Below are positions 7,801 to 58,665 of a stretch of DNA of 64,000 bases, in pieces (the stretch's first letter is position 1; every line of letters starts with the position of its first letter). A program made the position numbers and the translations under genes. Origin of the DNA: Lentisphaeria bacterium (GTDB taxonomy: Bacteria > Verrucomicrobiota > Lentisphaeria > Victivallales > UBA1829); NCBI GenBank assembly GCA_017503375.1, contig JAFVTF010000071.1, forward strand, positions 3,036 to 67,035, written 5' to 3'. The notes under the pieces are model-generated. The model ran no database searches and was not told where the DNA came from. It worked only from the letters and a program-made list of their open reading frames with translations.

Positions 7801-8253
7801 AGACCGATTTTCTCCACTCACTCAACCACAGTTTCTGTTCCGGAACAGATCAAGACTTTGATTTCCTTCTCCTTCGCATACGCTTTGATGAACCATGTTG
7901 ACCAGGGAATTGCACGCGGTTACAAAGAATATCAGACCATGCGTGATGAAGTATTCTCTTTCGGTTACGGACGTCCGGAAAACAAGACCATTGCGTTCTA
8001 TGACAGGGAAAAGCAGCCTGTTACATGCAATGCAGAAAATATCCGTACAACACAGGTGATCCGTCCTGATGGAAAGGCTCTTCTGATGGTTGGAAATCTT
8101 GGCGGTAAGGTCAAAGCAAAGTTTGATCTCTCCGGATTGAATTACAAGAAATTCAAAATCACGGATGTTTTCACCGGAAAAGTTCTTTCGACACCGGAGA
8201 TCGAAGTCGATACCCGTGGTTATGCTTTGCTGAAAATTGAAAAAATTAACTGA
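4852..8253 (+). CDS. large secreted protein, paralog 1 of 3: N-terminal CBM9/DOMON-like module plus uncharacterised C-terminal region
   Basis: 1133 aa with a signal-peptide-like start MVKSCLSFAALAAVVGLFA. The CBM9-like pattern is PVIDGKISTDEWRYAS...FRFGYDANNIYLSI...DDRVEFRF...CWTTEVAIPLSVFG. It is collinear with the next two ORFs over its full length. Confidence 0.85.
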   Translation: MVKSCLSFAALAAVVGLFANQKLSDKTILRMAPMPKAPVIDGKISTDEWRYASTTYGGISPVSGLMTRRQNDFRFGYDANNIYLSITSEMPLAPQPLTSDDRVEFRFQAPGKTTPVIINFDSKGKGKIPAGVKIANRFGISLMNSEQGPCWTTEVAIPLSVFGVSAVEDGKEWKFQMMRHWSSQKETGYFHNPKYGDGMATFIPDKKSVTVSFDGFGHHMYPATGNYNWTYRVESQLNTNVHVHSNCFRSGLDGAPTLDINNPDLFGKEKRIRIGYSVLAEKGISKYFELYMMAQFPGKPRCLYSQIVANDRKTVYYQRLMFWDTSIAQRAATYKDSVGYPYLSSAFYPSYGNKLRVAATFNKKLPIGYAEINVRDSKGKVLHTFKKSAFGNPLNDFEDQTVLKNLPLGDYTVTMDTIALDGRKFSHQRTFSIRKFAWQGLNLGKDRVIIPPFKPLKHSSWKKEVHALMTGYKIGEGIWSKVYAEGENILAAPIQLFLDGKPVKAGKIKLISEEKDRVVYEMTSQTGKVNFRITQDYDYDGFCKLTVKVIPQGTVKVKSFDLRVPVKDEYVKYYMTLDANRKRALGKPDWTVQKGQGELSLASGLRYKGRIQNYFWFGDGRKGISWIIDTQKGFTLDKNTYPYKFIREGKTVTYIQQMVNVPTEWDKPWEFEMGFSPTPVKPQAMGYRSISQNMYDYPTAKGSVAAGIMNITQWPLSYYYPINMFPNGDDTYWKTILASRGKQVTEAQRKKWAADYYARHKDWLLKNAPLMDHSRFKRHLLDRRAYSDDYFLIYHNPAYYSKRWAEAEMYKAEWLPWDYPVDDAHNEYIACQTPEYIDKLMWEMQTQIKYGFDGMNFDCFPLGGGFNTVSMKAFREKPGHVPIINNANMLQIASPGIRSAKNLFGWRELMKRTAHLLYVNNRLVFGVPWVEVHSTNATVPSVAAFCSTVITTECASKGGHYFDRFPDSYTLSDLVGAASGVIPRPIFSTHSTTVSVPEQIKTLISFSFAYALMNHVDQGIARGYKEYQTMRDEVFSFGYGRPENKTIAFYDREKQPVTCNAENIRTTQVIRPDGKALLMVGNLGGKVKAKFDLSGLNYKKFKITDVFTGKVLSTPEIEVDTRGYALLKIEKIN

Positions 8254-11200: not shown

Positions 11201-11663
11201 AGGAGTTATGCCCCGTCCCATCGTTTCAACCCGTTCTTCCAAACTGCCCCGTGCGGAGCAGGTCAAATCTCTGATCTCATGGTCCTTTGCCAACGGATTG
11301 ATGACACATTGTGACCAGGGCGTGCTGAGAGGACAGAAAGATTTCCAGGTCATGCGTGATGAAATCTTCAGTTTCGGTTTCGGCAGACCTCAGAACAAGA
11401 CCATTGCGTTCTATGACAAGGAAAAACAGCCCATCACCTGCAATGCCGCAAAAGTCCGCACAACTCAGGTGATCCGTCCGGATGGAAAAGCTCTTCTGAT
11501 GATCGGTAATACCGGAGATAAAGTCAAAGCCAAATTTGATCTTTCCGGTTTGAAGTATGGAAAATATAAAGTGACGGATGTCTTTACCGGAAAGGTTCTG
11601 ACAAGTACAGAAATTGAACTGCCCCGTCATGGTTATGCTCTTTGGAAGATCGAAAAGAACTGA
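8277..11663 (+). CDS. large secreted protein, paralog 2 of 3 (CBM9-like N-terminus plus uncharacterised region)
   Basis: 1128 aa, starting 23 nt after paralog 1. Signal-like start MQKTLFALLAATAVGAFG. It aligns end to end with paralogs 1 and 3, for example the shared YKAEWLPWDYPVDDA.NEYIA and GMNFDCFPLGGG. Confidence 0.85.
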   Translation: MQKTLFALLAATAVGAFGNTISNETLLRFAPMPKAPAIDGKIGYDEWKYASTTFGGISPKTKLMTRRQNDFRFGYDQKYVYFSITSEIPLPPQSLSGDDKVEFQLLPPGKTKPVVIAFDINRKGTIPAGTIIADSIGYATMNAEQGKCWIVEVAIPYSVLGVSGFKDGEKWGFQMIRHWSSQKETGYFHLPKKAGEMATFIPDTKAPIISFDGFGLLMYQATGNYNWTYRIENTQKQKIGVHSNSYRSGVNAAATLDINNPDLFGKEEKVAIGYSQTIEPGKTGLFQLHMMAQFPGKPRLLYSLLKGYNNVVYYKRTMFWDVLLSHRAAVYKDEKGLPYLNAGYYPSYGEKLRVAASFNKKLPIANVTITVRNSKGKVLHTFARSGFGRPLEDFEDQTVLKNLPLDDYTVTMESMDMNGKKYVHVRTFSIAKFPWQGLNLGKERIIIPPFKPLKVDKKKQEVHALLTGYKIGSGIWDAIYADGENILAAPIQFVLDGKPVPAGKTKLISAEKDRVVYETTVKNGKVKFILNQDYDYDGFCKLTTKVVPEGPVKISSFQLLIPMKAEYAKYYSALGFGNRTRGQGKPDTTIPAGQGELKLNINQRKGFILNYFWFGTAYKGFSWIIDTQKGFALDKKKYPHRMERKGNTVLFMQDIVNMPTIWDKPWEFTFGFSPTPVKPINKNYRSLSTWMYDYKPAKGSDKANMSIQQLPLGEYYDIQATPPGGESYYLDIVRNRGRFVPPAERKKMADEYIAKHKDWILKYAPLADFALLRKMFEDQRVWGDHYFLVYNDPAHYSYRWKEAEMYKAEWLPWDYPVDDALNEYIACKTPQYIDKMLYDMRRYARWGIEGMNFDCFPLGGGRNTVSRGAFREEPGPVPLIYNHNMLQIVPYGIVPCRDLFGWRELTKRTAHMLYTEGRLVHGVPWVELHSTDSAVPAVTAFCSTVITTECASHGDHYFDRFPESYVLSDLAGLQAGVMPRPIVSTRSSKLPRAEQVKSLISWSFANGLMTHCDQGVLRGQKDFQVMRDEIFSFGFGRPQNKTIAFYDKEKQPITCNAAKVRTTQVIRPDGKALLMIGNTGDKVKAKFDLSGLKYGKYKVTDVFTGKVLTSTEIELPRHGYALWKIEKN
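11352..11593 (+). repeat. near-identical 242-nt tract shared with 14928..15169 (inside paralogs 2 and 3)
   Basis: Aligning by hand gives 7 mismatches in 242 nt. A similarly protein-conserved segment (9361..9640 vs 12934..13213) gives 32 mismatches in 280 nt. Confidence 0.7.
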
Positions 11664-11737: not shown

Positions 11738-11782
11738 ATATCTGTAAAAAAAATATATAATATTGCATTTTTTTACAGATAT
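11738..11782. repeat. perfect 15-bp AT-rich inverted repeat in the paralog 2/3 intergenic region
   Basis: The arm ATATCTGTAAAAAAA (11738..11752) pairs with TTTTTTTACAGATAT (11768..11782). The 15-nt loop contains TATATAAT. The repeat lies about 70 nt upstream of the 11850 start. Confidence 0.6.
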
Positions 11783-11849
11783 GGTTCTTGTTTTTCTCAG
11801 TATAATGGAGTATAATAACCGGGAATATTATTTTGAGGAGATTTCTCGA

Positions 11850-14800
11850 ATGAAAAAATGTATTTTTGCCGCATTTGCGGCAGTCATGAGCAGTGTCGTT
11901 GGAAACACACTTTCCGATGAGACATTGCTTCGTTTTGCACCGATGCCGAAAATCCCTGTAATTGATGGGAAAATTGGTTATGACGAATGGAAATATGCTT
12001 CCACTACGTTCGGCGGGATCTCTCCGAAAACAAAATTGATGACATTCCGTCAAAATGATTTCCGGTTCGGTTATGATGCAAAAAATGTTTATTTCTCCAT
12101 TACAAGTGAAATCCCTCTTGCGCCGCAGTCTCTTGATAAAGATGATTGTGTGGAGTTTCAGCTTTTGCCTCCGGGAAAAACAAAACCTTTTGTGATCCAA
12201 TATGATATTACCGGAAAAGGCCAAGTTCCTGCCGGGGCAAAATTGAAAAACTCTATCGGTTATGCAATCATGAATGCAGAGCAGGGGAAATGCTGGATTA
12301 CTGAAATTGCAATTCCTTATTCTGCTTTGGGCGTGACCGGATTCAAAGACGGGGAAAAATGGGGACTTCAGATGATCCGTCACTGGTCCAGTCAGAAGGA
12401 AACCGGATACTTCCATCTTCCGAAAAAAGCCGGGGAAATGGCAACCTTCATTCCTGACTCCCAGGCTCCGATTATCAGTTTTGACGGATTTGGACAGCTG
12501 ATGTATCAGAATGCCGGAAACTATATTTGGACCTACCGTGTTGAGAACACTCAGAAACACAAATTCGGAGTGATCTCAAAAAGTTACCGTGCAGGTGTGA
12601 GCGGTGCTGCAACCCTGGATATCAATAATCCGGACCTGCTTGGAACTTCTGTGAAAGCCGCAATCGGCGGAAATGCCATGGTCGAACCCGGGAAAACGCA
12701 TTTGTTCCAGCTGCACATGGTGGCCCAGTTTGCCGGAAAGCCCCGTCTGCTTTATTCTCATTTGAAAGGATACAACAATATTGATTATTATAAACGAGTC
12801 ATGTTCTGGGACACTTCCATTTCTCAGAGAGCTGCTGTTTATAAAGATGAGATCGGTTTGCCTTATCTCAACGCCGGTTATTATCCGAACTATGGAGAAT
12901 TGCTCCGTGTTTCTGCTTCATTCAACAAAAAACTGCCCATTGCAAATGTCACGATCACCGTGAGAAATTCCAAGGGGAAAGTCCTGCATACCTTTGCCCG
13001 TGCCGGTTTCGGACGTCCTGTGGAAGATTTTGAAGATCAGACTGTTCTGAAAAATCTCCCGGTTGATGATTATACCGTGACCATGGAATCCATGGATATG
13101 AAAGGGAAGAAATATTCTCATGTGAGAACGTTCTCCATTGCAAAGTTCCCGTGGCAGGGATTGAATCTCGGAAAGGAACGGATCATTATTCCGCCGTTCA
13201 AACCCTTGAAGCTGGATCAGAAAAAACAGGAAATCCATGCTCTCATGACCGGTTATAAGCTCGGCGGGAAGGGAATCTGGGATGCAGTTTATGCCGATGG
13301 CGAAAATATTCTTGCAGCTCCCATTCAGTTTGTTCTTGACGGAAAGCTGATTCCCGCCGGAAAACTGAAATTGATTGAATCTGCCAAAGACCGTATCATT
13401 TATGAATCTTCCGTTTCCTCCGGAAAAGTCAAATTCATTCTGAATCAGGAATATGATTATGACGGTTTCTGTAAACTGAATGTAAAAGTTATTCCTCAGG
13501 GACCTGTCAAAGTGAAATCATTTGAATTGCGTGTCCCCATGAAAGATGAATACGCAAAATATTATGCAACGATTCGCGGAAACCGTCCCCGCGCACAGGG
13601 AAAACCGGATACAACCATCCCGGCAGGGCAGGGCGTGCTTGATATCAAAGGTGCTTTGCAGGAAAAAGGACGGGTCATGAATTATTTCTGGTTCGGAACC
13701 ACTTACAAAGGTTTCAGCTGGATCATCGACACACAGAAAGGTTTCTCCATCGAAAAGACAAAATATCCTCACCGGATGGAACGCAAAGGAAAAACTGTCA
13801 CTTTCATTCAGGATATTGTGAATAAACAGACAATTTGGGATAAACCCTGGGAATTTACCTTCGGATTCTCTCCCACACCGGTGAAGCCCATAAACAAAAA
13901 TTACCGAACTCTTACCACATGGATGTATGATTATCCCAAAGCAAAAGGGTCTGATAAATGCAACATGCAAGTGGAACAGCTCCCGCTCGGAGATTATTAT
14001 GATGTTCAGGCAGTTCCCGATGGCGATGATTATTATTACAGACAGATCATTGCCAGCCGCGGAAAAGTTATTTCCGAAGCAGAACGGAATAAAATGGCGG
14101 ATGAGTACATCGCAAAGCATAAAGATTGGATTCTGAGAAATGCACCGCTGGCAGATTTCAGCCTGATCCGCAAGCTGTTCACCACCAAGCGTGCATGGGG
14201 CGATGATTATTTTCTGATGTATAACGATCCCGCATATTATTCCTACCGCTGGAAAGAAGCGGAAATGTACAAAGCAGAATGGCTTCCTTTTGATTATCCT
14301 GTGGATGATGCACTGAATGAATATGTTGCAAACAAAACACCGGAATATATTGATAAGATGCTTTATGAAATGCGCCGTTATGTCCGCTGGGGACTCGATG
14401 GCATGAACTTTGATTGTTTCCCGCTTGGCGGCGGAAGAAATATGATTTCCATGGGCGCATTCCGTGAAAAACCGGGCAGAGTACCTTTGATGTACAATCA
14501 CAATATGCTTCAGTTTGTGCCGGAAGGAATTATTTATGCCAGAAACTTCTTCGGCTGGCGCGAACTCACCAAACGCACAGCTCACATGCTTTACACCGAA
14601 GGGAAACTTATTCATGGAGTCCCATGGGTGGAACTTCACGCAACCGATGCCGCTGTTCCTGCAGTTGCCGCTTTCTGTTCTACTGTGATTACAATGGAAT
14701 GCGGTTCCATGGGCGGAAACTATTATGATCGCTTCCCCGACAGTTATGTGCTGAGTGATCTTGCCGGAACACAGGCTGGAGTTGTGCCCCGGACGATCGT

Positions 14801-15239
14801 TTCAACCCATTCTTCCAAACTTTCCCGCGCAGAACAGGTCAGATCTTTGATCAGCTGGTCCTTTGCCAACGGGATGCTGAATCATACAGATCAGGGCGTA
14901 TTGAAAAATCAGAAAGATTACCGCATTATGCGTGATGAAATCTTCAGTTTCGGTTTCGGCAGACCTCAGAACAAGACCATTGCGTTCTATGACAGGGAAA
15001 AACAGCCCATCACCTGCAATACCCCAAAAGTCCGCACAACTCAGGTGATTCGTCCGGATGGAAAAGCTCTTCTGATGATCGGTAATACCGGAGATAAAGT
15101 CAAAGCCAAATTTGATCTTTCCGGTTTGAAGTATGGCAAATATAAAGTGACGGATCTGTTTACCGGAAAAGAAATCGTAAAACCGGAAATTGAACTGCCC
15201 CGTCATGGCTATGCCCTTTGGAAAATAGAAAAACTTTAA
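11850..15239 (+). CDS. large secreted protein, paralog 3 of 3 (CBM9-like N-terminus plus uncharacterised region)
   Basis: I chose ATG 11850 (MKKCIFAAFAAVMSSVVG, with a GAGGAG RBS 9 nt upstream) over the track start 11763. That start would add 29 AT-rich non-homologous residues. The protein is very similar to paralog 2 throughout. Confidence 0.8.
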   Translation: MKKCIFAAFAAVMSSVVGNTLSDETLLRFAPMPKIPVIDGKIGYDEWKYASTTFGGISPKTKLMTFRQNDFRFGYDAKNVYFSITSEIPLAPQSLDKDDCVEFQLLPPGKTKPFVIQYDITGKGQVPAGAKLKNSIGYAIMNAEQGKCWITEIAIPYSALGVTGFKDGEKWGLQMIRHWSSQKETGYFHLPKKAGEMATFIPDSQAPIISFDGFGQLMYQNAGNYIWTYRVENTQKHKFGVISKSYRAGVSGAATLDINNPDLLGTSVKAAIGGNAMVEPGKTHLFQLHMVAQFAGKPRLLYSHLKGYNNIDYYKRVMFWDTSISQRAAVYKDEIGLPYLNAGYYPNYGELLRVSASFNKKLPIANVTITVRNSKGKVLHTFARAGFGRPVEDFEDQTVLKNLPVDDYTVTMESMDMKGKKYSHVRTFSIAKFPWQGLNLGKERIIIPPFKPLKLDQKKQEIHALMTGYKLGGKGIWDAVYADGENILAAPIQFVLDGKLIPAGKLKLIESAKDRIIYESSVSSGKVKFILNQEYDYDGFCKLNVKVIPQGPVKVKSFELRVPMKDEYAKYYATIRGNRPRAQGKPDTTIPAGQGVLDIKGALQEKGRVMNYFWFGTTYKGFSWIIDTQKGFSIEKTKYPHRMERKGKTVTFIQDIVNKQTIWDKPWEFTFGFSPTPVKPINKNYRTLTTWMYDYPKAKGSDKCNMQVEQLPLGDYYDVQAVPDGDDYYYRQIIASRGKVISEAERNKMADEYIAKHKDWILRNAPLADFSLIRKLFTTKRAWGDDYFLMYNDPAYYSYRWKEAEMYKAEWLPFDYPVDDALNEYVANKTPEYIDKMLYEMRRYVRWGLDGMNFDCFPLGGGRNMISMGAFREKPGRVPLMYNHNMLQFVPEGIIYARNFFGWRELTKRTAHMLYTEGKLIHGVPWVELHATDAAVPAVAAFCSTVITMECGSMGGNYYDRFPDSYVLSDLAGTQAGVVPRTIVSTHSSKLSRAEQVRSLISWSFANGMLNHTDQGVLKNQKDYRIMRDEIFSFGFGRPQNKTIAFYDREKQPITCNTPKVRTTQVIRPDGKALLMIGNTGDKVKAKFDLSGLKYGKYKVTDLFTGKEIVKPEIELPRHGYALWKIEKL
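14928..15169 (+). repeat. partner of the 11352..11593 near-identical tract
   Basis: See 11352..11593. Confidence 0.7.
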
Positions 15240-18060: not shown

Positions 18061-18089
18061 TTGACAAATTATTTGATTTATGCTAAATT
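18061..18089 (+). promoter_or_regulatory. sigma70-like promoter (TTGACA-17-TAAATT with an upstream TGc)
   Basis: TTGACA at 18061..18066, a 17-nt spacer ending in TGC, and TAAATT at 18084..18089. This supports ATG 18131 as the gene start rather than the track start 18080. Confidence 0.45.
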
Positions 18090-18130
18090 GTTTGAGAGAA
18101 AATAGAACTTTCAAAAAAGGATTTTTTTAT

Positions 18131-19735
18131 ATGAGAGATTCCCGTGTAACTGATTATATTTCCCCAGTCAGGATCATTGCAACAGAAAAATGTTCCGGCG
18201 GTGATGTGCTTTTGAAAGAATGTCCGGGCCAGGCAACGACTGCCCCCCGTCCGGAGTGTGTATTGGAACCCGGCGGCTGGATCGTTCTGGATTTCGGCAA
18301 TGAATATTACGGAGGGATCGAATTGACCGTCGGCGGATATGATGCCGGAGAACGCAAACTGCTGCTGACGTTCGGGGAATCTGTTGCAGAAACCTTTTCT
18401 CATCCGGATCATTCTCATGCAATACAGGAAACGAAATTACGTTTGACTCCGTGGTCTGTTCTGTCATTTGGTAAACTCGGATTCCGCTTTGTGAAACTGG
18501 AAAATCCGGAAACATTTTCCATTGGAATTCAGGGAATCCGCTGTTGTTATGTTCACCGGGAATTTCCTGTTCAGGGATCATTCAAGTGCTCCGATCAGAG
18601 ATTGAACGATATCTGGGATGCCTCTGTCCGAACGTTAAGTTTGTGTATGCAGGGCTTTATGTGGGATGGCGCAAAGCGGGATCAGCTGGTTTGGATGGGG
18701 GATCTTTATCCGGAAATTTTTGCCTGTGCAACGATTTTCGGAAAACAGGATGTTGTGGAAAAAAGTCTTGATTTTCTTCGTGATGAAACTCCATTGCCCC
18801 GGATGATGAATGGTTGCGGAACTTATTCTTTCTGGTGGATCCTTGCACAGCGTTACTGGTATCGCCGCTTCGGTTCTCTGAAATATCTGAAAGAACAGCA
18901 GAATTACTTGAAAGATTTGTTGACTCATCTTTCCGGAATGGTCTCTGAAAGCGGAGAATTGGATTTTACCGGAGGTTATCTCCTTTTGGATTGGGCAACC
19001 GGAATCAGTCTTGAATCCGGTCCTTCTATCAGGAACGGTTCTCATGCTGTATTGCGGCTGGCGATGCTTGCTGGTGCGGAACTTTGTCATATTCTGGGGG
19101 AAGATGAAACCGCAGCTCTTTGTGAAAAAACGTCAGAAAATCTTTTGAAAAAAGAACTTCCCCTGAGTGATTGCAGTGCCGCCGCCAATGCGTTTCAGGT
19201 TCTTGCCGGATACCGGGATGCGAAAACCGTTTATGACAGCTGTTTTGCAGGAAAACTGCCTCACGGATTATCAACATTCCTCGGCTGTTTTATTCTGGAT
19301 GCCTGTGTAAAAGCCGGACACCGGAAAGAGGCTTTGGATTATATGCGTGAATATTGGGGCGGAATGCTTTCAACCGGTTCTACAACCTTTTGGGAGCATT
19401 TTGATATAGACTGGCTGAAAGATGCCGGAAGAATTGATGAAATCGTTCCGGCAGGAAAACACGATATTCACGGGGAATATGGAGAAGGTTGTTTTACAAG
19501 TTACCGGAACAGTTTCTGTCACGGCTGGGGTTCCATGCCTGCGGAGTGGCTGATCCGTCAGATTTGCGGAGTTGATTTTGTTGATTCCCGGACGGTCCGT
19601 TTTACACCGGATTTATGCGGTCTTGATTGGGTCGAAGCTCATATTCCGACAGAATTCGGGATGATTGATATTTCCATTGCTCCGGGAAAAAGTGAATTGA
19701 ATCTTCCGGATGAAATTCAACTCAAAGAGGAATAA
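18131..19735 (+). CDS. GH78-like alpha-L-rhamnosidase-type six-hairpin glycosidase
   Basis: MWDGAKRDQLVWMGDLYPE matches the DGAKRDR.VW.GD motif of rhamnosidase (alpha/alpha)6 domains. The C-terminal TFWEHFD...SFCHGWGSMPAEWL also fits. The start is set at MRDSRV (18131), downstream of the predicted promoter. Confidence 0.65.
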   Translation: MRDSRVTDYISPVRIIATEKCSGGDVLLKECPGQATTAPRPECVLEPGGWIVLDFGNEYYGGIELTVGGYDAGERKLLLTFGESVAETFSHPDHSHAIQETKLRLTPWSVLSFGKLGFRFVKLENPETFSIGIQGIRCCYVHREFPVQGSFKCSDQRLNDIWDASVRTLSLCMQGFMWDGAKRDQLVWMGDLYPEIFACATIFGKQDVVEKSLDFLRDETPLPRMMNGCGTYSFWWILAQRYWYRRFGSLKYLKEQQNYLKDLLTHLSGMVSESGELDFTGGYLLLDWATGISLESGPSIRNGSHAVLRLAMLAGAELCHILGEDETAALCEKTSENLLKKELPLSDCSAAANAFQVLAGYRDAKTVYDSCFAGKLPHGLSTFLGCFILDACVKAGHRKEALDYMREYWGGMLSTGSTTFWEHFDIDWLKDAGRIDEIVPAGKHDIHGEYGEGCFTSYRNSFCHGWGSMPAEWLIRQICGVDFVDSRTVRFTPDLCGLDWVEAHIPTEFGMIDISIAPGKSELNLPDEIQLKEE

Positions 19736-20617: not shown

Positions 20618-22189
20618 TTATTTCAATACCTTTTTCAAATCATTCCACGCCAGTTTCGGTTTGCGGTATTCATCGACCAAACCTTTGTTGTTATAACCGC
20701 GCGGACGCATCATGATCCGTCCGTTGTCATCAACCTGTGAGTTGCAGAACTGCCAGAAAAGAACGCCACTGTAACGGGAATCTTTCCGGATGAGTTCCAG
20801 TGTTGTCAGAATCAGCTGACTCTGATATTCTTCGGACCAGCGTCTGCCGCTGTGATCTCCGGGGAGGGCGGCTGCTCCGATTTCGCTGATGATCATTGGC
20901 ATTTCTGCCAGTTCCGGAGTGTTCCTGACAAACTCCGCAATCCTGTCAAGTTCCGCTTCGACGATGTTCGGGTCAAAGAAAGTGAATGTTCCATTGTACC
21001 ATCCGGGATATGTATTGAATGCGGCAATATCCACGATATCCAGACATTTGTCACGGTCAGACATCATCGTTGCAAAAGTGATAAGACGGGAAGTGTCTTC
21101 CTCTTTGATCGTTTCCGTCAGTTCTCTGACACATCTGCGGGCGGATTCATCATCGGTGATCGCTTCATTGAGGAATCCCCAGAAGACAATGGACGGATGA
21201 TTGATGCTGTTGCGGATCATCCGCTTCAGACCTGATTTCTGTCTACGGATAAACTCTTCGTTATTGAGTGAATCCAGGGGATTTTCCCAGCCGAGCGTTT
21301 CATCCCAGACGAGCAATCCCAATTCATCTGCCAGATCCAGCATGAGTTCAGATTGCGGATAATGAGAACCTCTGATAAAGTTCATTCCTTCCGCTTTGAT
21401 CATCTGCAAATCTGTTTTCAGCTGTTCATAGGGTATTGCCGCTCCGGTCAGCGGATAAACATCGTGACGGTTTACTCCGACAATAAAAAGTTCTTTTCCA
21501 TTGAGATAGAGTTTTCTGTTTTTTGATTCGATGGACCGCAGACCGAAACGGGTTTTATAAACCTCATCTCCGCAAGAGATTGTCACAGAATAAAGATTCG
21601 GTTCTTCCGGAGACCAGAGTTCCGGTTCCGGAATAACAAACTCAAAATCACCGGAGCCCGGAAATTCAATGGTTTGACCGTTGGAAATCTGCATTGAAAC
21701 CGATTTTTCCGGTCCATCGAGTTCAATATGAAGCTGAACTTTTCCGGCAAACGGATCAACGGGAATAACCTTGACATAAGAAAAGCTGGTTTCCGGGAGT
21801 TCCCGCAGGGTGACATCTCTGTAAATTCCACCGAATCCGTAAAAATCATAAAATCTGCGGAATTCAGATTCCGGAGTTTCTTCAATGGTGTTATCACAAA
21901 TAATTTTCAGTTCATGATTTCCTTTTTCTCCGGCATCGAAACGCAGCGTGAGCGGTGTGTATGCTGTCAACTCTTCTCCGATTTTCTTTCCATCCCAGAA
22001 AATTTCTGCCCGGAGTCCGATACCTTCCAGATGCAGTTCCACATATCCGCCGCAGACAACTTCCCGCCAATAGGCAGCCTTTCCCCTTTGACTGAAAAAT
22101 TCTCCGGCAGCATCAAAACATCCCGGAACGGGCATCTTTATTGTTTTTCCGTTTTCAAATGAAAAATTCCAAAGACCATTCAAAAGCAT
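20618..22189 (-). CDS. GH2 glycosidase, beta-glucuronidase-like
   Basis: GH2 motifs are present: NRHDVYP, IRGSHYPQSELMLDLADELGLLVWDE, the acid/base motif FWGFLNEA and the nucleophile motif MIISEIGA. The C-terminal GYNNKGLVDEYRKPK resembles the GUS N-x-K glucuronate-binding motif (E. coli GGNKKGIFTRDRKPK). Confidence 0.7.
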   Translation of the reverse strand: MLLNGLWNFSFENGKTIKMPVPGCFDAAGEFFSQRGKAAYWREVVCGGYVELHLEGIGLRAEIFWDGKKIGEELTAYTPLTLRFDAGEKGNHELKIICDNTIEETPESEFRRFYDFYGFGGIYRDVTLRELPETSFSYVKVIPVDPFAGKVQLHIELDGPEKSVSMQISNGQTIEFPGSGDFEFVIPEPELWSPEEPNLYSVTISCGDEVYKTRFGLRSIESKNRKLYLNGKELFIVGVNRHDVYPLTGAAIPYEQLKTDLQMIKAEGMNFIRGSHYPQSELMLDLADELGLLVWDETLGWENPLDSLNNEEFIRRQKSGLKRMIRNSINHPSIVFWGFLNEAITDDESARRCVRELTETIKEEDTSRLITFATMMSDRDKCLDIVDIAAFNTYPGWYNGTFTFFDPNIVEAELDRIAEFVRNTPELAEMPMIISEIGAAALPGDHSGRRWSEEYQSQLILTTLELIRKDSRYSGVLFWQFCNSQVDDNGRIMMRPRGYNNKGLVDEYRKPKLAWNDLKKVLK

Positions 22190-27350: not shown

Positions 27351-27953
27351 ATGAAAATTTTTCTGACAATTTTGTTTGCAGCAGCGATACTTTGCTCTCA
27401 TGCCCAGAGACTTGTGCATAAAAGAGGTCCGGGAATGAGAAATCATCCGCAGATGCATCCGTTGATTTCTGTTTTGGAATCAGATATGTTTACTCCGGCA
27501 GAACGGACCCGCTTGAAAGATCTGGCTGAAAAAGACAGGAAAGCGTTTGCTCTGGAAATGCGGAAACATTTTATGAAGCATAGAAAGGCTGAAGCTGAAA
27601 AGATTCTGACTCTTCGTAAACAGGTGATAGAAGCAAAAGATCCGGCAGTCAGGAAAAAAGCTGAAGACGAGCTGAAAGTTCTTCTCCGGAAGAAAGCTGA
27701 TCAGCGTTTGGCTTTTCATAAAAAAATTCTTGATGAAACAGTTCGCAATATTCAGCATATGCAGCGGCGTTGTGATATGCTCCGGAAGGAATATGACAAC
27801 AGAAAGAATAATAAGGAACAGCTTGTAGAAAAAGAGCTGGAAAAAATTCTCTCAGCTGAACCTCCCGCTTATTTGAAACGGAATGCCGCCTGGGATCCGT
27901 CAAAACCGCTTCCCCCGCCTCCGATGATGAGGATGGATAAAAAAAATAAGTGA
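27351..27953 (+). CDS. secreted Lys/Glu-rich helical protein (possibly Spy/CpxP-like), third gene of the ECF operon
   Basis: Signal peptide MKIFLTILFAAAILCSHAQ, then a long charged helical sequence and a Pro-rich C-terminus. The functional call is weak. Confidence 0.55.
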   Translation: MKIFLTILFAAAILCSHAQRLVHKRGPGMRNHPQMHPLISVLESDMFTPAERTRLKDLAEKDRKAFALEMRKHFMKHRKAEAEKILTLRKQVIEAKDPAVRKKAEDELKVLLRKKADQRLAFHKKILDETVRNIQHMQRRCDMLRKEYDNRKNNKEQLVEKELEKILSAEPPAYLKRNAAWDPSKPLPPPPMMRMDKKNK

Positions 27954-27973
27954 CATTTTTCAAAAAAATCTGA

Positions 27974-28001
27974 AAAGCCCGGAAAAACTGGGCTTTTTTT
28001 T
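27974..28001 (+). terminator. rho-independent terminator
   Basis: Stem AAAGCCC (27974..27980) / GGGCTTT (27990..27996), followed by a T-run. Confidence 0.65.
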
Positions 28002-28103
28002 CTTTTTTACACCTGATATTTTTTTCTTATGCTCTTGAAAGTTGCACAATATAGGTGTAAATTACCGGATAAAGAAAAACAACCCATTAAGGAGAATTCA
28101 GAA

Positions 28104-29033
28104 ATGAAGAAAGTTTTGATTCCGACAAAGCTTGATAAAGTTGTCAAGCAGATCCTCGAAGAAAAAGGTTTTACTGTTGTTCAGGACAAGGATACCCCCC
28201 TTGCTGATCTTGCAAAAGCAAATGCTGATGCTTGTGCGGTGATCGTCCGCAGTGAAAAAGTTCCCGCAGAAATCATTGATCTCCTTCCTTCCTTGAAGCT
28301 CGTGGTCCGCGCCGGTGCCGGTTTCGATAATATTGATACAAAGTATGCCCGTACAAAAAATATCGATGTGATGAACACTCCCGGAGCAAACTCCAACGCT
28401 GTTGCTGAAGAAGTTGTTGCAATGATTCTTACAGCTTATCGCAAACTCGTTCCAGCTGACATTTCCACCCGCGCTGGAAAATGGGAAAAATCCAAATTCA
28501 TGGGCCGTGAGCTGACCGGTAAGACACTCGGTATTCTCGGTCTCGGTCACATTGGCCGTCTTCTCGCGAAACGCGTTTCCGGTTTTGAAGTCAAAGTTCT
28601 TGCTTTCGACCCCTTCGTTACCGCTGAAGCAGCAGAAAAAATGGGTGTAACCCTTTGTTCCGTTGAAGAAATTTTCAGTCAGGCAGATATCATTTCTCTT
28701 CACATTCCGGAAAATGATTCCACCCGCGGCATGGTCAATGAAAAACTTCTTGCTCTTATCAAGAACGGCGCAATGATCGTTAACTGTGCACGTGCAGGTA
28801 TTGTGGATGAAGATGCTCTCCGCAAAGCAAAAGCTGAAAAAGAACTGATCTATTGCAATGACGTTTACAAGAAAGATGCCGAAGGTGAAAAATCCATTGC
28901 AGATGTGGCAGATGTCATGGCTCCCCATCTTGGCGCAAACACCTATGAAGCAAACTTTGTTGCAGCCCGCCGCGCAGCAGAACAGACCGTTGATTACTTT
29001 GAACAGGGAAATACTTCCTGCGTCGTTAACTGA
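28104..29033 (+). CDS. serA: D-3-phosphoglycerate dehydrogenase, catalytic (substrate + NAD) portion, ending at an in-frame TGA
   Basis: AAGGAG RBS before ATG 28104. It has the NAD motif GILGLGHIGRLLAKR, plus NCARAGIVDE and the catalytic-His region APHLGANT. It stops at TGA 29031..29033, where long-form PGDHs continue. Confidence 0.8.
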   Translation: MKKVLIPTKLDKVVKQILEEKGFTVVQDKDTPLADLAKANADACAVIVRSEKVPAEIIDLLPSLKLVVRAGAGFDNIDTKYARTKNIDVMNTPGANSNAVAEEVVAMILTAYRKLVPADISTRAGKWEKSKFMGRELTGKTLGILGLGHIGRLLAKRVSGFEVKVLAFDPFVTAEAAEKMGVTLCSVEEIFSQADIISLHIPENDSTRGMVNEKLLALIKNGAMIVNCARAGIVDEDALRKAKAEKELIYCNDVYKKDAEGEKSIADVADVMAPHLGANTYEANFVAARRAAEQTVDYFEQGNTSCVVN

Positions 29034-29045
29034 GCCGAGGATGTA

Positions 29046-29675
29046 ATGGGATCGCATCAGGAATATCAGCAGCTGGCAGAAATTCTTGCAAATCTTGCAG
29101 GGTGTGCTCTGGGGAAAAACAGAAGTTTCAATAAAATAGAAGTCAGTTTCTATGGTGAACTCCATGATTCTGCAGAAGCCCTGTTTCTTTCTGTCTGCGC
29201 CGGTATATTCACAGATGCAGATCCCTTTCAGAACGGCAGAAAAGCTCAGGAATATCTTGACAGCAAAGGTATTGTATTTGAAAATCGTGAAGTGGACGAA
29301 TCCAAGAAGTATGGAGAGTCCATCACACTGGATCTGCTGGATGGCGAAAATTGTCTTGTTTCGGTTCGCGGAACTTTTACAGAAAACAAGATGATGATAT
29401 CCCGGATCAATGATTTTGATAATCTTTACCTTATTCCTCATGGCAGCAATATCTTTTTTGAATATGAAGATAAACCCGGTGTGATTGCAAAGTTATCCGG
29501 GATTCTCAGCATATCCGGAATCAATATTGCAGATATAAGAGCACCGCAGGTCAAGACTGGAGCATTCCCCCGTTCTCTGGCAGCAATTAAAACGGATACG
29601 GAAGTTTCTGATGAACTTTTGAATAAGATGGCGGATTTTGTCAATGCAATCTCAGCATTCAAATTCAATTGTTAA
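29046..29675 (+). CDS. ASB-like + ACT regulatory portion of long-form phosphoglycerate dehydrogenase, as a separate ORF
   Basis: It is in the same frame as 28104..29033 and starts 12 nt after that ORF's TGA, with GAGGA 4 nt upstream of the ATG. The sequence is collinear with the B. subtilis-type SerA C-terminal half. The ACT signature is FFEYEDKPGVIAKLSGILSISGINIADIRAPQ. Confidence 0.7.
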   Translation: MGSHQEYQQLAEILANLAGCALGKNRSFNKIEVSFYGELHDSAEALFLSVCAGIFTDADPFQNGRKAQEYLDSKGIVFENREVDESKKYGESITLDLLDGENCLVSVRGTFTENKMMISRINDFDNLYLIPHGSNIFFEYEDKPGVIAKLSGILSISGINIADIRAPQVKTGAFPRSLAAIKTDTEVSDELLNKMADFVNAISAFKFNC

Positions 29676-30168
29676 TGAATCCGAACAGCGAAGCACCGGG
29701 AATTTCAATCCGGTGCTTCTTTCTTTCGGTGGAAATATTGCCGGAACACTGGAACGTTTTGAACGTGCATTACAGCTTCTAAGCCAGCGCGGATTCCGGA
29801 TTCTGAGCGTATCAGAACCATTGATAAATCCGGCAATCGGCTGTGAGCCGGGGGCTGCAGATTTCACAAATCTGTGTGTGCTTGGGGAGTGGCAGGGAAC
29901 ACCGCTTGAATTATTGGATTTGACACAATCTATTGAAGTGGAAGAAGGCCGTCCGGCGGATCACCCCCATTGGGTATCCCGGACTTTGGATATTGATATT
30001 ATTCTGATGGGGTATGTGAAAATTGATCTGCCCCGTCTGAAAGTACCGCATCCTCTGGCATCTGTCCGTGATTTCGTGATGAAGCCTGCCCGAGAAATCC
30101 TGCCGGAAGATTTGATAAAATTCCTTGAAAATCAGGCGGAAATTTATAAAAAAGAAGACAAGTTTTGA
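29638..30168 (+). CDS. folK: 2-amino-4-hydroxy-6-hydroxymethyldihydropteridine diphosphokinase (HPPK)
   Basis: LLSFGGNIAGTLERFERALQLL, RTLDIDIILMG and LKVPHPLASVRDFVMKP are HPPK motifs. The start is uncertain: ATG 29638 overlaps the upstream ORF by 38 nt, whereas GTG 29713 would give the usual short N-terminus. Confidence 0.8.
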   Translation: MSMQSQHSNSIVNESEQRSTGNFNPVLLSFGGNIAGTLERFERALQLLSQRGFRILSVSEPLINPAIGCEPGAADFTNLCVLGEWQGTPLELLDLTQSIEVEEGRPADHPHWVSRTLDIDIILMGYVKIDLPRLKVPHPLASVRDFVMKPAREILPEDLIKFLENQAEIYKKEDKF

Positions 30169-36205: not shown

Positions 36206-39200
36206 ATGAGAAAGATTAAATTCCTGAAAAACACAAAGAAATCCCAGCGCGGAGTTGCGTTGATATTTGCCCTGAGCATTCTCGGTTTGATGGTTGTCCT
36301 CGGGCTGACATTTGCTTCTCTTTCATTTTCAGAGCAGGCTGTTTCCCGCGGAAGTTCTGAACAGGAAGCCGCAAAGATCATGGCAAAGTCTGCCGTGAAC
36401 CGGATTATTGCTCTTTTGGAGAATAATACGGCAATTACGGAATCCGATAAAATTGTTTCCGGCGGCGATCCGAATAACTCCAATCACTACGATTTTCTGT
36501 GGAAAATGATTGCCTATCACGGGGATGTTCCCGGGGCTGGGGATATGCAGAAAAAGCTGGAAGACCGGATTAAAAACGGAACAGATTCTCCGTATTGGCA
36601 GTATATCATTGCTCCGAACAAAGATGGAGAGGATGAGATCGTGGGAAGATTTGCTTATGCCGCTTATCAGCCGGTCGGTCTGCTGGATCCTTATGTATCT
36701 GCTAAAAAAGCAACGGAAGGTTCCTCTCCAATCACCCGATTTGGGATGACACCAGATGAAATTGATTTGAAAGCTCTTGTTGGTGTAACAGTTCCCGGCG
36801 GTTCCGGGAATTTATCTGCCGATGATATTAATACACTTGGCTCAAAGAACGCTGACTCCGGCGTTTCTTCAGATATCGGCACTCCTGCGGCTCTTTTTGA
36901 GAGATTTTCTGCAACCACCATGACAGCCTTAAATTCAAACCTTCAATATCTTCCGTTAAGAAATAAATTGACGGCCTCCTGGTTCAGTATTCCGAGAACG
37001 CCTGCTTTGCCGGAACGGTACTACTACAAACTTCCGGCTGAGACAAATGAAAAAGAATATCATCGTTTTCCATTGAACCTTACACCTGTCGATTGGGGAA
37101 AAATTGGCATGGATCAGTTTACTTTGCAAAAGATGGATGATTCTGCTAATCCATCAGCGACTCTTTATGATGAATCTGCAGCCGCAAATGAAAAGGCTTC
37201 TCTCGGTATCCCGTGGTTCAATAAGGCCGATGATGATACCCGTCAAATTGCTGCAAACTTCCTGAGTTATTTCTCTCCGATTCCGGAGAATCTGACAGAA
37301 AAGAAATACTGGAGCGCAGATAATGAATCTGCGACATACACCGCAAACATGCGTACCCCGTACATCAATGACCTTTTGATGCATGTAAAACTGAATATGC
37401 TGGTTACTGACAAAATTGATGGTGATGTAGATAATCCTCAATACAAAAAGATTTTTACGGTTGAGATCAAACCGGAAATAGATGTTTATATCGAACTGGC
37501 AGATCTCTACGGAAAATCTCTGGACAGTATCTCATCTCTGACATTCAAGATGAAAGCCTTGAAAGACTTAAAAGCGAAACAAACGGCAAATGCTGTCATC
37601 TCTTTCAATGGCGGAGATATGCTTGCTGAAAATGCAATGCTGAAAGATATAAACTTTACAGTTACGAGTCCATCCGGTAATAAGTTCAATGCGGCAAATG
37701 GCGATATTTCCAATGTTTTCCCGGTGTTCCAAAAGACTGTAACAGCAACAAAGCCTTTTACAGCAACGATCACTGTACAGATGACACGTCCGGAGCTTGA
37801 AGGCGGCGGCTACGGTGATGCAACTTGTGATCCTGTTGAATTCAATGAGCCGCTGCAGACTTTCGTTATGGAAAAGCTCTCTCTGCTCATGTCTGCTAAA
37901 TTCAACGGCCGCTCTGCAGAACTCCCCATAGATTTGGCGAATATTTCGCTTGAAAAGACTGTTCCGGTTCTGGGTGCGGAGATCCCTCCGTCAAATCAGG
38001 TTTCTGATAAATGGGCTCCCTTCAAGCTGAATATCAATAACAAGGGAGAATATGAAGATGCCTCCCAGAAAGAACAGGAACGCAGTGTAATGTTCCGTTA
38101 CCGTGCAATAGATTCCGCAGCGAACCTGAAGCAGGAACACTGGGTGGAGTCCACCCCCGAATTTTTCAAGGATTCCGTTGATATTACGACGATTGATTCC
38201 TATCCCGGGTTGAACAATTTTTCAGAATTGAAAGCAGAAGGTCTGCTGACTCTTACAAAAAATGATGCACTTGATTATCATACATTGACCGCCAAAGTCA
38301 ATGGAACTGACAAGACATTCTTTGTAGATAAAGAAAAAGAACCTGCGGATAAAAATGCCGTGGAGGGGTATGGTGCGGTTCTTTCCACATCTTACATCCG
38401 TGGGCAGGTTTCCAATACAACGGAAGTTCAGTCTCCCTGGGAAATCGGCTTTATCCATCGCGGCATGCCGTACCAGACATTGAACATCAAACGGTTCAAT
38501 AAAAATTCTGCGGAAATCGGAAAATATGAAGATGGCGATGCGAATATTTTCGATTATATCAAAATCCTTCAGAAAGAAGATGATGGAACGGTTGCCGAAG
38601 AAAACAAAATTCATGCAAGAGGTCTTGTCAATCTTCAGAAGATTTCCCATCAGAATGAAAATTCTGAAAATGGTGGAAATCTTCCGGCAGCATACGCATT
38701 TTTCTCCAATATTGATCTTGGCTGGAAAATGGATAAGAATAACAATAAATTTGAACCGAAGACTGGGATAACATGGGAAAATACGCTGGCGCAGGCAAAA
38801 AATATTGTCAAAGAAATTGTAAAAGTCGTTGACAAGCCGAATTTTGCATTGAAGTCCAGAGCGGCAATTCTTGATCCTGTTTTGAATTTGCAAAAAGTTC
38901 TGGCAGTCGGGGATGATGATGCGGCAAAAGAAGAATTGATCGGCCGTTTTATCATGCTGACAACAGCAGATCCGGCAAAGGTGAATCTGTTCTCTGATTT
39001 CCTTGTTGTGACAGCGATTGCACAGCGGATTCAAATCGGTTCATCCATGTTCCCGGATAAGGAATGGCTGAATGACGGAACATTTGATTCCTTCCCGAAT
39101 AATCCGCCGTCGAATCTTCCGAACAATCTGACTGACAGAATTCAGCAGAATGCATGGATCGAAGCCGGTTACGGATATCGGAATTACAATGAATTCTGGC

Positions 39201-39388
39201 GGTTCAAGAAGAATGATTTTGTGAGTGCTGTAATGAAGCCGGATAAAAATGATTTAACTGCAGCGAATCGCAAAAAGAAGTTTTATCCAGGCTATGACAG
39301 AATTCTTTCCACTCAGAAAGTAATCGCATGGCTCCGGAAGAATGCAAATGGAAAATGGTATATTGAAAGGTTGGATTATGTTGATTAA
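36206..39388 (+). CDS. giant GspK/PilX-like minor pseudopilin (1060 aa)
   Basis: The N-terminus KKSQRG-VALIFALSILGLMVVLGLTFASLSFSEQAVSRGSSEQEAAKIMAKSAVNRIIALL matches the GspK/PilX_N pattern QRGvAL..vL and lacks Glu+5, as GspK does. It is followed by about 1000 aa with no recognisable motif. AGGAGG RBS. Confidence 0.7.
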   Translation: MRKIKFLKNTKKSQRGVALIFALSILGLMVVLGLTFASLSFSEQAVSRGSSEQEAAKIMAKSAVNRIIALLENNTAITESDKIVSGGDPNNSNHYDFLWKMIAYHGDVPGAGDMQKKLEDRIKNGTDSPYWQYIIAPNKDGEDEIVGRFAYAAYQPVGLLDPYVSAKKATEGSSPITRFGMTPDEIDLKALVGVTVPGGSGNLSADDINTLGSKNADSGVSSDIGTPAALFERFSATTMTALNSNLQYLPLRNKLTASWFSIPRTPALPERYYYKLPAETNEKEYHRFPLNLTPVDWGKIGMDQFTLQKMDDSANPSATLYDESAAANEKASLGIPWFNKADDDTRQIAANFLSYFSPIPENLTEKKYWSADNESATYTANMRTPYINDLLMHVKLNMLVTDKIDGDVDNPQYKKIFTVEIKPEIDVYIELADLYGKSLDSISSLTFKMKALKDLKAKQTANAVISFNGGDMLAENAMLKDINFTVTSPSGNKFNAANGDISNVFPVFQKTVTATKPFTATITVQMTRPELEGGGYGDATCDPVEFNEPLQTFVMEKLSLLMSAKFNGRSAELPIDLANISLEKTVPVLGAEIPPSNQVSDKWAPFKLNINNKGEYEDASQKEQERSVMFRYRAIDSAANLKQEHWVESTPEFFKDSVDITTIDSYPGLNNFSELKAEGLLTLTKNDALDYHTLTAKVNGTDKTFFVDKEKEPADKNAVEGYGAVLSTSYIRGQVSNTTEVQSPWEIGFIHRGMPYQTLNIKRFNKNSAEIGKYEDGDANIFDYIKILQKEDDGTVAEENKIHARGLVNLQKISHQNENSENGGNLPAAYAFFSNIDLGWKMDKNNNKFEPKTGITWENTLAQAKNIVKEIVKVVDKPNFALKSRAAILDPVLNLQKVLAVGDDDAAKEELIGRFIMLTTADPAKVNLFSDFLVVTAIAQRIQIGSSMFPDKEWLNDGTFDSFPNNPPSNLPNNLTDRIQQNAWIEAGYGYRNYNEFWRFKKNDFVSAVMKPDKNDLTAANRKKKFYPGYDRILSTQKVIAWLRKNANGKWYIERLDYVD

Positions 39389-40980: not shown

Positions 40981-41244
40981 ATGAAGCTTGAAAGATTGAT
41001 ATTGGGGCTGCTTCTGCTTCCCCTGGTTATTGCGATTTTTGTTATCTTATTTCCGCTGATTCTGATCTTCGGGATCATTGCGCTTTTCTTGCGCGGAAAT
41101 ACGGTTCGTACATTTGTCAAAACGAAAACACTCCGCAGTCAGACGTCAGAACCAAATCGGGAAGATGACGTGATTGATGTTGAAGTGATACGTTCCGAAG
41201 ATATCGGAGAAAAGAATGATATATCCGGACGGTCGCTCCGCTAA
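40981..41244 (+). CDS. small membrane protein
   Basis: MKLERLILGLLLLPLVIAIFVILFPLILIFGIIALFL gives two predicted TM helices. The track start, GTG 40966, is an alternative. Confidence 0.5.
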   Translation: MKLERLILGLLLLPLVIAIFVILFPLILIFGIIALFLRGNTVRTFVKTKTLRSQTSEPNREDDVIDVEVIRSEDIGEKNDISGRSLR

Positions 41245-42262
41245 ATGGTATCATAATCAGAGAACCATTAAAATTCTTTTATTCTCGACAGTTCTTGTCA
41301 TTGCAGGATTTCTCTTTTGGTTTTTCAATAAGCCGGCTGTTCTGGAGGATTTATCCGGAGGGAAATATCCGGAAACATTCCGTACAGTTTATCGTCCTTT
41401 GCAGAAGGAACTCCTTTTACTGCATGCAGAAGGTTTTTTTGAGCCTTCTGCAGCTCAAAGTGCTGTACCTGCCGTGTTTTTGGAATGGTATATGGCTCCC
41501 GAAACGCGATTGATCATTCATGAAAAAGATTTTTCTCCTGATATGTACCATTTACAGATCCGGAAGAGTCTGCAAACCGGAATGCGGGAAAAATGTATTT
41601 TCTTTTCCGAACCTTTGGAGAATCCGGTTCCCGGTGATTTATTCCGGACACTGACAGGTTGTTTCAATAAATATCTGGCACGGAAAAATTATAAAAAATG
41701 TGTTGATTTACTTGAGGATATGTTCTGTTTTTCCTCGCTTATATTGAATTCAAATGTTGCAGAAAGCTATTTTCTGTCAGAAAGTGTTAAGTATGGCAAA
41801 TTGTATGAACAGACTTTTGAAAAAAATCAGAAAGCTGCGTCGTTCTGGCGGAAAGTAAAATGGAAACTGGCTGGAAAATATCTTTTTTCCATGCATGGAA
41901 TCTATCGTCTGGAATGTCAGAAAATTATGGCTGACTACGAAAAAATCCGTATCAGCGGAATTCACATCTTTGATGAGAAGCCTGAAGGCAGTTCTCAATT
42001 TTTGGATGGCGTTGCAACATTTTCTGTTACCAGAATGATAGACGGCATTTCAACTTCGATCACTGATTATTTTTATGATGTTGATCGGGATCAAACCATG
42101 ACTCTTTCCATGTTGAGACGATTGCTCAACGACGGGATTTCTCCGGCGATGCTGGAACGTCCGAACCGGAAGATGAGCATCCGTTGTTTCCGCCGGATCA
42201 CAGATGATGCGGAAATTCTGTCATCTGCAATCCTTTATCTTGCCAATTCTTCGGATAAGTAA
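41216..42262 (+). CDS. membrane-anchored hypothetical protein, last gene of the pseudopilin operon
   Basis: 348 aa with one N-terminal TM segment (IKILLFSTVLVIAGFLFWFF) and no recognisable motifs. It overlaps the upstream ORF. Confidence 0.6.
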   Translation: MIYPDGRSAKWYHNQRTIKILLFSTVLVIAGFLFWFFNKPAVLEDLSGGKYPETFRTVYRPLQKELLLLHAEGFFEPSAAQSAVPAVFLEWYMAPETRLIIHEKDFSPDMYHLQIRKSLQTGMREKCIFFSEPLENPVPGDLFRTLTGCFNKYLARKNYKKCVDLLEDMFCFSSLILNSNVAESYFLSESVKYGKLYEQTFEKNQKAASFWRKVKWKLAGKYLFSMHGIYRLECQKIMADYEKIRISGIHIFDEKPEGSSQFLDGVATFSVTRMIDGISTSITDYFYDVDRDQTMTLSMLRRLLNDGISPAMLERPNRKMSIRCFRRITDDAEILSSAILYLANSSDK

Positions 42263-58580: not shown

Positions 58581-58665
58581 TCGTCTCTCCATTTTCATTT
58601 AGAAAAGGGGGGTGATACTGTTCCGTTGTGTCATAAAGAAAATAATGGAATTTTCTGAAAGGATG

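Follow-up and report, generated by a model that had tools for sequence, protein, structure and literature searches.

The window analysed here, a stretch of 64,000 nucleotides (nt) from Lentisphaeria bacterium (contig JAFVTF010000071.1, forward strand) whose own positions are used as coordinates throughout, raises the question of what an in-frame TGA means in the middle of a gene for phosphoglycerate dehydrogenase (PGDH, SerA). PGDH is a textbook allosteric enzyme, and the two open reading frames (ORFs) on either side of this TGA correspond to its catalytic and its regulatory parts, respectively. An earlier note on the locus had described a single in-frame TGA splitting a long-form PGDH, and had left four options: a genuine two-polypeptide enzyme, UGA readthrough, a recent nonsense mutation and a sequencing error. 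The evidence presented below picks the first of these, with ORF2 translated independently, and the locus very probably represents a fixed fission of a type I PGDH, in an animal-gut Lentisphaeria clade, into two adjacent, co-transcribed and separately translated genes. The ORF starts and stops, the spacer, the shared frame and the GAGGA tract given in that note were all confirmed on the sequence, and the elements of the gene pair are as follows:

28089..28094, + strand: Shine-Dalgarno sequence AAGGAG, 9 nt 5′ of the ORF1 ATG, read from the sequence
28104..29033, + strand: ORF1, PGDH catalytic subunit, 309 aa, from the ATG at 28104 to the TGA at 29031..29033
29034..29045, + strand: intercistronic spacer GCC GAG GAT GTA (GCCGAGGATGTA), 12 nt
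29037..29041, + strand: Shine-Dalgarno sequence GAGGA, 4 nt 5′ of the ORF2 ATG at 29046
29046..29675, + strand: ORF2, putative regulatory subunit, 209 aa, with the stop TAA at 29673..29675
29046..29420, + strand: ASB (intervening) domain of ORF2, approximately residues 1-125
29421..29672, + strand: ACT domain of ORF2, approximately residues 126-209

ORF1 ends in ...QGNTSCVVN directly before the TGA, and ORF2, which in the window lies in the same frame as ORF1, begins with the peptide (M)GSHQEYQQLAEILANLAGCALGK. Both ORFs matched the same NCBIfam model, TIGR01327 (PGDH, 525 positions), with ORF1 covering profile positions 1-311 (E 1.5e-87, 294.6 bits) and ORF2 covering positions 324-520 (E 1.5e-22, 80.1 bits); the equivalog cut-off of 454 bits was missed by ORF1, by ORF2 and by their sum. 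ORF1 comprises the substrate-binding and NAD-binding domains of a D-2-hydroxyacid dehydrogenase (Pfam 2-Hacid_dh PF00389, 94.8 bits, and 2-Hacid_dh_C PF02826, 159.5 bits, both above their cut-offs) and retains the active-site arginine of the CARxG motif (CARAG) and the PHLG histidine. Its best PDB match was the human PHGDH catalytic unit 6plf (E 4.8e-62), followed by 1YGY (6.7e-54).

The regulatory character of ORF2 was recognized by both sequence and predicted structure. An ACT domain (PF01842) was found at 29.8 bits against a cut-off of 27, while PGDH_inter reached 24.3 bits, slightly below its cut-off of 27, and ORF2 aligned with residues 349-520 of the Mycobacterium tuberculosis PGDH (PDB 1YGY, E 9e-7). 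The AlphaFold model of ORF2 (predicted local distance difference test score, pLDDT, 91.1) superposed on the ASB and ACT domains of 3DC2, 1YGY and 3DDN with template modelling (TM) scores of 0.82-0.84, that to 3DC2 being 0.84, and root-mean-square deviations of 2.3-2.7 Å over ~210 columns; the presence of an ASB domain, subthreshold in Pfam, is thus supported by the model superposition. In the M. tuberculosis enzyme serine is bound by Tyr461, Asp463 and Asn481′ (PMC6300728), and Y140, D142 and N160 of ORF2, which align with Tyr461, Asp463 and Asn481, were invariant or nearly so in our alignment A1. The identification of the two ORFs as halves of a long-form (ASB+ACT) PGDH, proposed in the earlier note, is therefore supported by TIGR01327, Pfam, the 1YGY alignment and the model fold alike.

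The same arrangement recurred well beyond the window. In the assembly collection, 50 index blocks contained the exact ORF2 protein; the 23 blocks with the longest contigs were examined, and in all ten loci inspected, which derived from independent samples, studies and assemblers, the junction was identical to that of the window. At NCBI, ORF1 and ORF2 are recorded as separate proteins of a Lentisphaeria metagenome-assembled genome, with ORF1 on 33 contigs and ORF2 on 35. A protein search yielded five more clusters, whose members are 208-209 aa long and share 79-85% identity with ORF2, each with a contig bearing a 309-310 aa ORF1 directly upstream and folK downstream. Together with the window this gives six split lineages, among which ORF2 is 75-85% identical. 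Pairwise synonymous divergence (dS) between these lineages was 0.5-1.0 for ORF1 and 1.0-1.6 for ORF2, and the ratio of nonsynonymous to synonymous divergence (dN/dS) was 0.017-0.037 for ORF1 and 0.06-0.135 for ORF2, which indicates that both halves are expressed genes under purifying selection. Judged from the genes compared, the two-gene split is inherited and kept by selection.

A side observation concerns synonymous divergence within the same lineage pairs (L011, L014 and L017), which was lower in ORF1 (0.54-1.02) than in ORF2 (1.10-1.38); stronger codon bias, recombination homogenising ORF1 and saturation noise are possible causes.

The junctions of the split lineages differ as follows:

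Window: ORF1 stop TGA, spacer gccgaggatgta, 12 nt
L011: TGA, spacer gcaaggtttgta, 12 nt
L100: TGA, spacer gcaaggtttgtg, 12 nt
L014: TGA, spacer gtaaggtttgtg, 12 nt
L102: TGA, spacer gcaaggTAAgag with a second in-frame stop TAA, 12 nt
L017-L019: TAA after ...VVNK, spacer ggtttgta, 8 nt

In L017-L019, ORF2 lies in another frame than ORF1, and the 310-aa form of ORF1 found there occurs on 34 contigs. The window spacer differs from that of L011 at 5 of 12 positions with the flanking codons conserved, and the spacers, when read as codons, would give AEDV, ARFV, VRFV or AR*E, that is, non-conservative changes; the segments flanking the spacer, NTSCVVN and MGSHQEYQQLA, are invariant. The ORF2 ATG and a purine-rich GAGG or AAGG tract were present in every junction, and no stable RNA fold was found 3′ of the TGA, where the fold of positions 29010..29110 reached −23 kcal/mol and shuffled sequences averaged −25.95 (z +0.94). 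This combination of a freely changing spacer, a constant ATG with its GAGG/AAGG tract and no RNA structure indicates that ORF2 is translated from its own start. Because L102 and L017-L019 are unable to make a fusion, yet their ORF2 is intact and selected, no readthrough is needed for ORF2, whose translation is independent of it. The earlier suggestion that the GAGGA 4 nt before the ATG makes independent translation plausible is thereby backed, while a shared reading frame is seen at the junctions of some lineages only and is not a functional feature. The gap of 8-12 nt would be typical of translational coupling.

A comparison of orthologous serA loci, proposed in the earlier note as a way to tell whether the gene is normally fused or split, gave both answers, since the gene is split in the six lineages above and fused in all other informative relatives. 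By scanning GTDB species genomes with the ORF2 alignment, 80 loci were obtained from Lentisphaerota, Kiritimatiellota and other bacteria of the Planctomycetes-Verrucomicrobia-Chlamydiae (PVC) group, two of which were too near a contig end to judge. In 72 loci the open frame extended upstream by >300 codons to take in a complete catalytic domain, and in four further loci it ran into a catalytic domain of which the contig end left only a part, so that a fused gene (product ~522 aa) was present in 76/76 informative loci. The nearest fused relative, L020 ("Lentisphaerae bacterium SIG79"), encodes 522 aa with 91% identity to ORF1 and 71% to ORF2, and the next-nearest, L021 ("Lentisphaeria bacterium RGIG3871", from roe-deer caecum), is paired with it; this pair stands apart from the six split lineages with 100% bootstrap. 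As all 76 informative relatives are fused, the most parsimonious account is that the gene split once, in the gut clade's ancestor.

How the fission arose is partly recorded in the junctions. The fused linker reads VVN-K-G-V-P-D-G-L-N, and the split junctions depart from it through several substitutions and a length change of +3 or +2 nt, which rules out a single clean nonsense change as their origin; the emphasis of the earlier note on a single in-frame TGA is to be corrected in this respect. In neighbour-joining trees of ORF1 nucleotides the window grouped with L014 (92%) and L017 with the fused outgroup L020 (86%), whereas ORF2 trees gave no resolution inside the split clade, and the trees leave both TGA with 12 nt and TAA with 8 nt as candidates for the ancestral junction.

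A library-wide search with ORF2 returned many ~200-aa C-terminal pieces of PGDH, and among the four that were followed up no second well-supported split clade was found. Two of them, L103 (100-200) and L104 (100-180), are unrelated type I PGDH genes with one in-frame stop each (TAG and TAA, respectively) near the catalytic/ASB boundary and with the downstream part called as a protein of 207-208 aa; as each is known from one short contig, they may be an error, a pseudogene or a further fission. The other two were rejected as independent fissions: L105 is cut by the contig end, and L106, on a contig of 69% GC, has both halves in one frame and is probably a fused gene that was mis-called. Separately, L104:1-60 translates to an Illumina adapter signature (..FHTRRSSDL.., frame 2), and the contig thus carries adapter contamination.

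The three domains have evolved at markedly different rates since the split. In 35 fused pairs with catalytic divergence <10%, the mean divergences were 7.7% for the catalytic part, 5.8% for ASB and 14.7% for ACT, whereas pairs within the split clade ranged over 2.6-4.2%, 24-34% and 7-13%, respectively. Correspondingly, the ASB/catalytic divergence ratio, which was at most 1.31 in the fused pairs, reached 7-12 in the split clade. Median dN/dS by domain in the split clade was 0.126 for ASB and 0.056 for ACT; the ASB domain is thus still constrained, although its value of ~0.13 exceeds the 0.07 of the nearest fused pair. Conservation of the serine site together with a fast ASB therefore indicates that ACT has been preserved and that ASB has been released from, or is adapting to, changed contacts.

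Several known enzymes suggest how the two chains might work together. ORF1 alone would form an active dimer, as would be expected from type III PGDHs, which are dimers without serine regulation (PMC6300728), from human sPHGDH, an active dimer (PMC8081924), and from Corynebacterium glutamicum SerA minus 197 C-terminal residues, which has been reported to be insensitive to serine feedback. By analogy with the known enzymes, ORF2 would fold alone and pair by ACT-ACT and ASB-ASB contacts, with L-serine bound where the ACT domains meet. Through the close spacing of the ORF1 stop and the ORF2 start, translation may be coupled so that both chains are made together, and an ORF2 oligomer could then dock non-covalently onto ORF1 dimers, the docked ORF2 restoring serine feedback control in trans. 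Such an association, with effector control in trans, is what we infer from the conserved adjacency, the 8-12 nt spacing and the selection on both genes. The full proposal, namely a natural two-subunit PGDH and possible fourth type, in which an ASB+ACT subunit on a type III-like dimer confers serine feedback in trans and the burst of ASB change reflects a new interface, has in our judgement an even chance of being right.

The main live alternative is that the two halves have become uncoupled, with ORF1 acting as an unregulated type III-like PGDH and ORF2 as a free ACT/ASB protein in a different or reduced role, for example serine sensing for another partner. We regard this as rather unlikely, yet it has much to draw on: the ASB divergence of 24-34% where the catalytic parts differ by only 2.6-4.2%, when in the 35 fused pairs mean ASB divergence (5.8%) is below mean catalytic divergence (7.7%); the raised ASB dN/dS; the activity of truncated catalytic cores on their own; and the resemblance of ORF2 to the separately encoded beta subunit of L-serine dehydratase (sda_beta, TIGR00719, E 5.5e-8). 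That last match, however, scores 33 bits against a cut-off of 161, and the best family match of ORF2 is still PGDH at 80 bits. Uncoupling would also have to accommodate an ORF2 that follows ORF1 directly, after only 8-12 nt, in all lineages, and in which the serine ligands and the ACT domain (dN/dS 0.056) are strongly conserved; and no candidate for an alternative partner was seen in the window.

Further points weigh against a two-gene, two-subunit enzyme and are set out here together. The fast ASB could reflect a new non-covalent interface or, equally, loosened coupling or a changed role of ORF2. The association of the ORF1 and ORF2 proteins and the serine sensitivity of ORF1 are both inferred. 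No second serA or ACT/ASB paralogue was found in the 64-kb window, and a second, fused serA is possible outside it. Low-level UGA readthrough is possible in the window lineage, where the TGA is in frame and the spacer has no second stop. Finally, the catalytic Glu of the human "TEEP" motif appears in the alignment opposite the Asp of "DVYKKD" in ORF1 (28860..28880); as fused relatives in alignment A1 carry "DVYPKD", with the same Asp for the catalytic Glu, this replacement is irrelevant to the split and is a clade trait separate from it.

Readthrough in a stronger form, programmed or tolerated, would yield a fraction of full-length protein of ~523 aa alongside the two chains in the lineages with a TGA junction. 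UGA is generally the leakiest stop codon, and in the window, L011, L014 and L100 the TGA is in frame with ORF2 across a 12-nt spacer without further stop. Nevertheless, we consider this improbable, since L017 (TAA, shifted frame) and L102 (second stop) keep ORF2 intact and selected, which excludes the readthrough option of the earlier note as a requirement. Moreover, the notional spacer codons vary non-conservatively, no stable structure lies past the stop (z +0.94), TGA terminates 18 of the 46 long window ORFs, and, compared with the fused linker, the junction has gained a sixth codon, which means that a readthrough product would differ from the ancestral sequence.

Specific forms of recoding were rejected as well. 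A selenocysteine or readthrough element fails on the fold of 29010..29110, which is no better than that of shuffles, and on the UGA itself, which is not conserved among lineages; programmed stop recoding fails in L017-L019 (TAA, 8-nt spacer, other frame) and in L102, whose spacer holds a second in-frame stop. Genome-wide recoding of TGA is contradicted by stop usage in the window, where TGA closes 18 of the 46 long ORFs and TAA the other 28; the TGA stops include 8253, 11663, 17997 and 20607, the four stops that the earlier note had cited in taking TGA, correctly, for a normal stop. The window encodes release factor RF1 (prfA) rather than RF2, and its prfA is therefore uninformative on UGA.

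With regard to the third stop codon, TAG ends 0/46 of the long ORFs checked in the window, at 45% GC (the stops checked include that at 33150), and its absence among long ORFs may be simple avoidance in the lineage.

It is highly improbable that the TGA is a recent nonsense mutation and ORF2 an untranslated, decaying remnant. The stop does sit where fused relatives have linker coding sequence (VVN-K-G-V-P-D-G), and sporadic single-contig in-frame stops occur near the same boundary in unrelated PGDH genes (L103, L104). Decay, however, would give a dN/dS near 1 together with frame-breaking changes, whereas six diverged lineages at dS ~1 keep an ORF2 of 208-209 codons uninterrupted at a dN/dS of 0.06-0.135, with its start codon and ribosome-binding tract conserved and ORF1 likewise intact and selected, and a recent mutation is therefore ruled out. 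A sequencing or assembly error, which has nothing in its favour but the prior chance of a single-base error, is scarcely credible and can be ruled out because the junction was identical in 10/10 independent loci, ORF2 occurs on 35 contigs and diverged relatives share the architecture.

The 2018 review by Grant (PMC6300728) classes PGDHs as type I, II or III according to which domains one polypeptide contains, and mentions no split form. Like type I enzymes (M. tuberculosis SerA1, 1YGY/3DC2; Bacillus subtilis; human PHGDH), the pair described here shows the domain order substrate-binding, NAD-binding, ASB and ACT. A type I enzyme, however, carries its four domains on a single chain of ~520-530 aa (~525 aa in the family model), whereas here two ORFs of 309 and 209 aa are found, the chain being broken at the boundary between catalytic core and ASB; in addition, the ORF2 alignment shows no conservation of the cationic ASB-site residues Arg446, His447 and Arg451 of M. 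tuberculosis PGDH. ORF1 by itself resembles type III PGDH (Entamoeba histolytica) in having catalytic domains only. Type III enzymes and truncations lack a regulatory module altogether and escape control by serine, whereas here an ASB+ACT module is encoded 12 nt downstream as an adjacent gene under purifying selection. Because the domains are those of type I on more than a single chain, and a regulatory module is present, unlike in type III, we file the pair as a two-gene type I PGDH, a variant of a known enzyme rather than a new kind of system.

Two-subunit organization of this sort has precedents in other enzymes. Acetohydroxyacid synthase (IlvB/IlvN), aspartokinase alpha/beta and two-subunit L-serine dehydratase (SdaAA/SdaAB) each combine, like the present pair, a catalytic chain with a small ACT chain encoded in one operon. 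A structural comparison of the ORF2 ACT domain matched it to IlvN and to aspartokinase regulatory subunits, among others, and the sda_beta family of SdaAB is detectably homologous to ORF2. For IlvBN-like enzymes, however, the two-subunit form is the established norm, whereas for PGDH regulation in trans is a proposal drawn from the present locus. No description of a split or two-subunit PGDH was found in the literature searched, the coverage of which was incomplete, so that this is absence of evidence only.

The significance of the clade lies in what it offers to the study of this enzyme. The type I/II/III classification assumes one polypeptide per subunit (PMC6300728). The natural cut removes nearly the same segment as the 197-residue truncation of C. 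glutamicum SerA, and the clade is thus a natural counterpart of laboratory truncations, both that of the last 197 codons of C. glutamicum serA, which deregulated serine production, and those made to crystallise human PHGDH. It permits a direct test of ACT/ASB regulation in trans and of which ASB surfaces matter; if the two-subunit proposal were true, it would provide a system for allosteric signalling from ACT/ASB to the active site without a covalent linker. In practical terms, the NCBI records label ORF1 (MBR2440352.1) "hypothetical protein" and ORF2 (MBR2440353.1) "ACT domain-containing protein", and pathway reconstruction in gut Lentisphaeria could therefore miss serA or call it broken. 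The scope is limited, gene fission being a familiar process and the clade narrow.

The surroundings of the gene pair are given below:

27351..27953, + strand: gene upstream of the serA unit, ended by the hairpin at 27972..27998
27972..27998, + strand: terminator-like hairpin and T-run ending the upstream gene, with an 11-pair stem and a T-rich tail
28006..28063, + strand: two overlapping sigma-70-like promoter matches (consensus matches), TTTACA-16-TATGCT and TTGAAA-17-TAAATT
29690..29719, + strand: terminator-like hairpin (11 pairs, 7 GC) and T-rich tail, 15 nt past the ORF2 stop
29644..30168, + strand: folK (HPPK), the downstream neighbour, with start candidates ATG 29644, ATG 29675 and GTG 29713

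The two ORFs are bracketed by the terminator-like hairpins at 27972-27998 and 29690-29719, a layout that fits an operon. The first hairpin sets the upstream limit of the serA transcription unit, and the two promoter candidates that lie between it and ORF1, each matching the sigma-70 consensus at 9/12 positions, are tentatively assigned from these consensus matches. The second hairpin, where the bicistronic unit may end or be attenuated, falls inside the first part of folK as called, a gene that keeps its downstream position in all split-clade loci. The TIGR01498 folK match covers nothing before residue 25 of the ORF called from 29644, so translation of folK may really begin at GTG 29713, in which case the hairpin could be a terminator or attenuator between serA and folK.

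Elsewhere in the window, the ORFs at 36206..39388 (1060 aa) and 41216..42262 (348 aa) had no Pfam match at E 1e-5. The gene for the Rho termination factor (56442..58598, − strand, 717 aa) has recognisable Rho domains only from residue 307, and no match was found for the N-terminal extension of ~300 aa. Three tandem + strand ORFs of ~1130-1158 aa (4852..8253, 8277..11663 and 11763..15239) each showed a weak, partial match to a glycoside hydrolase (GH) family 123 N-terminal domain (E 2.6e-9 to 2.5e-11). Near them lie a GH127 gene (1886..3733), a rhamnosidase-like ORF (18080..19735), a GH2 gene (20618..22189) and an AraC regulator, a cluster that suggests a polysaccharide-use locus.

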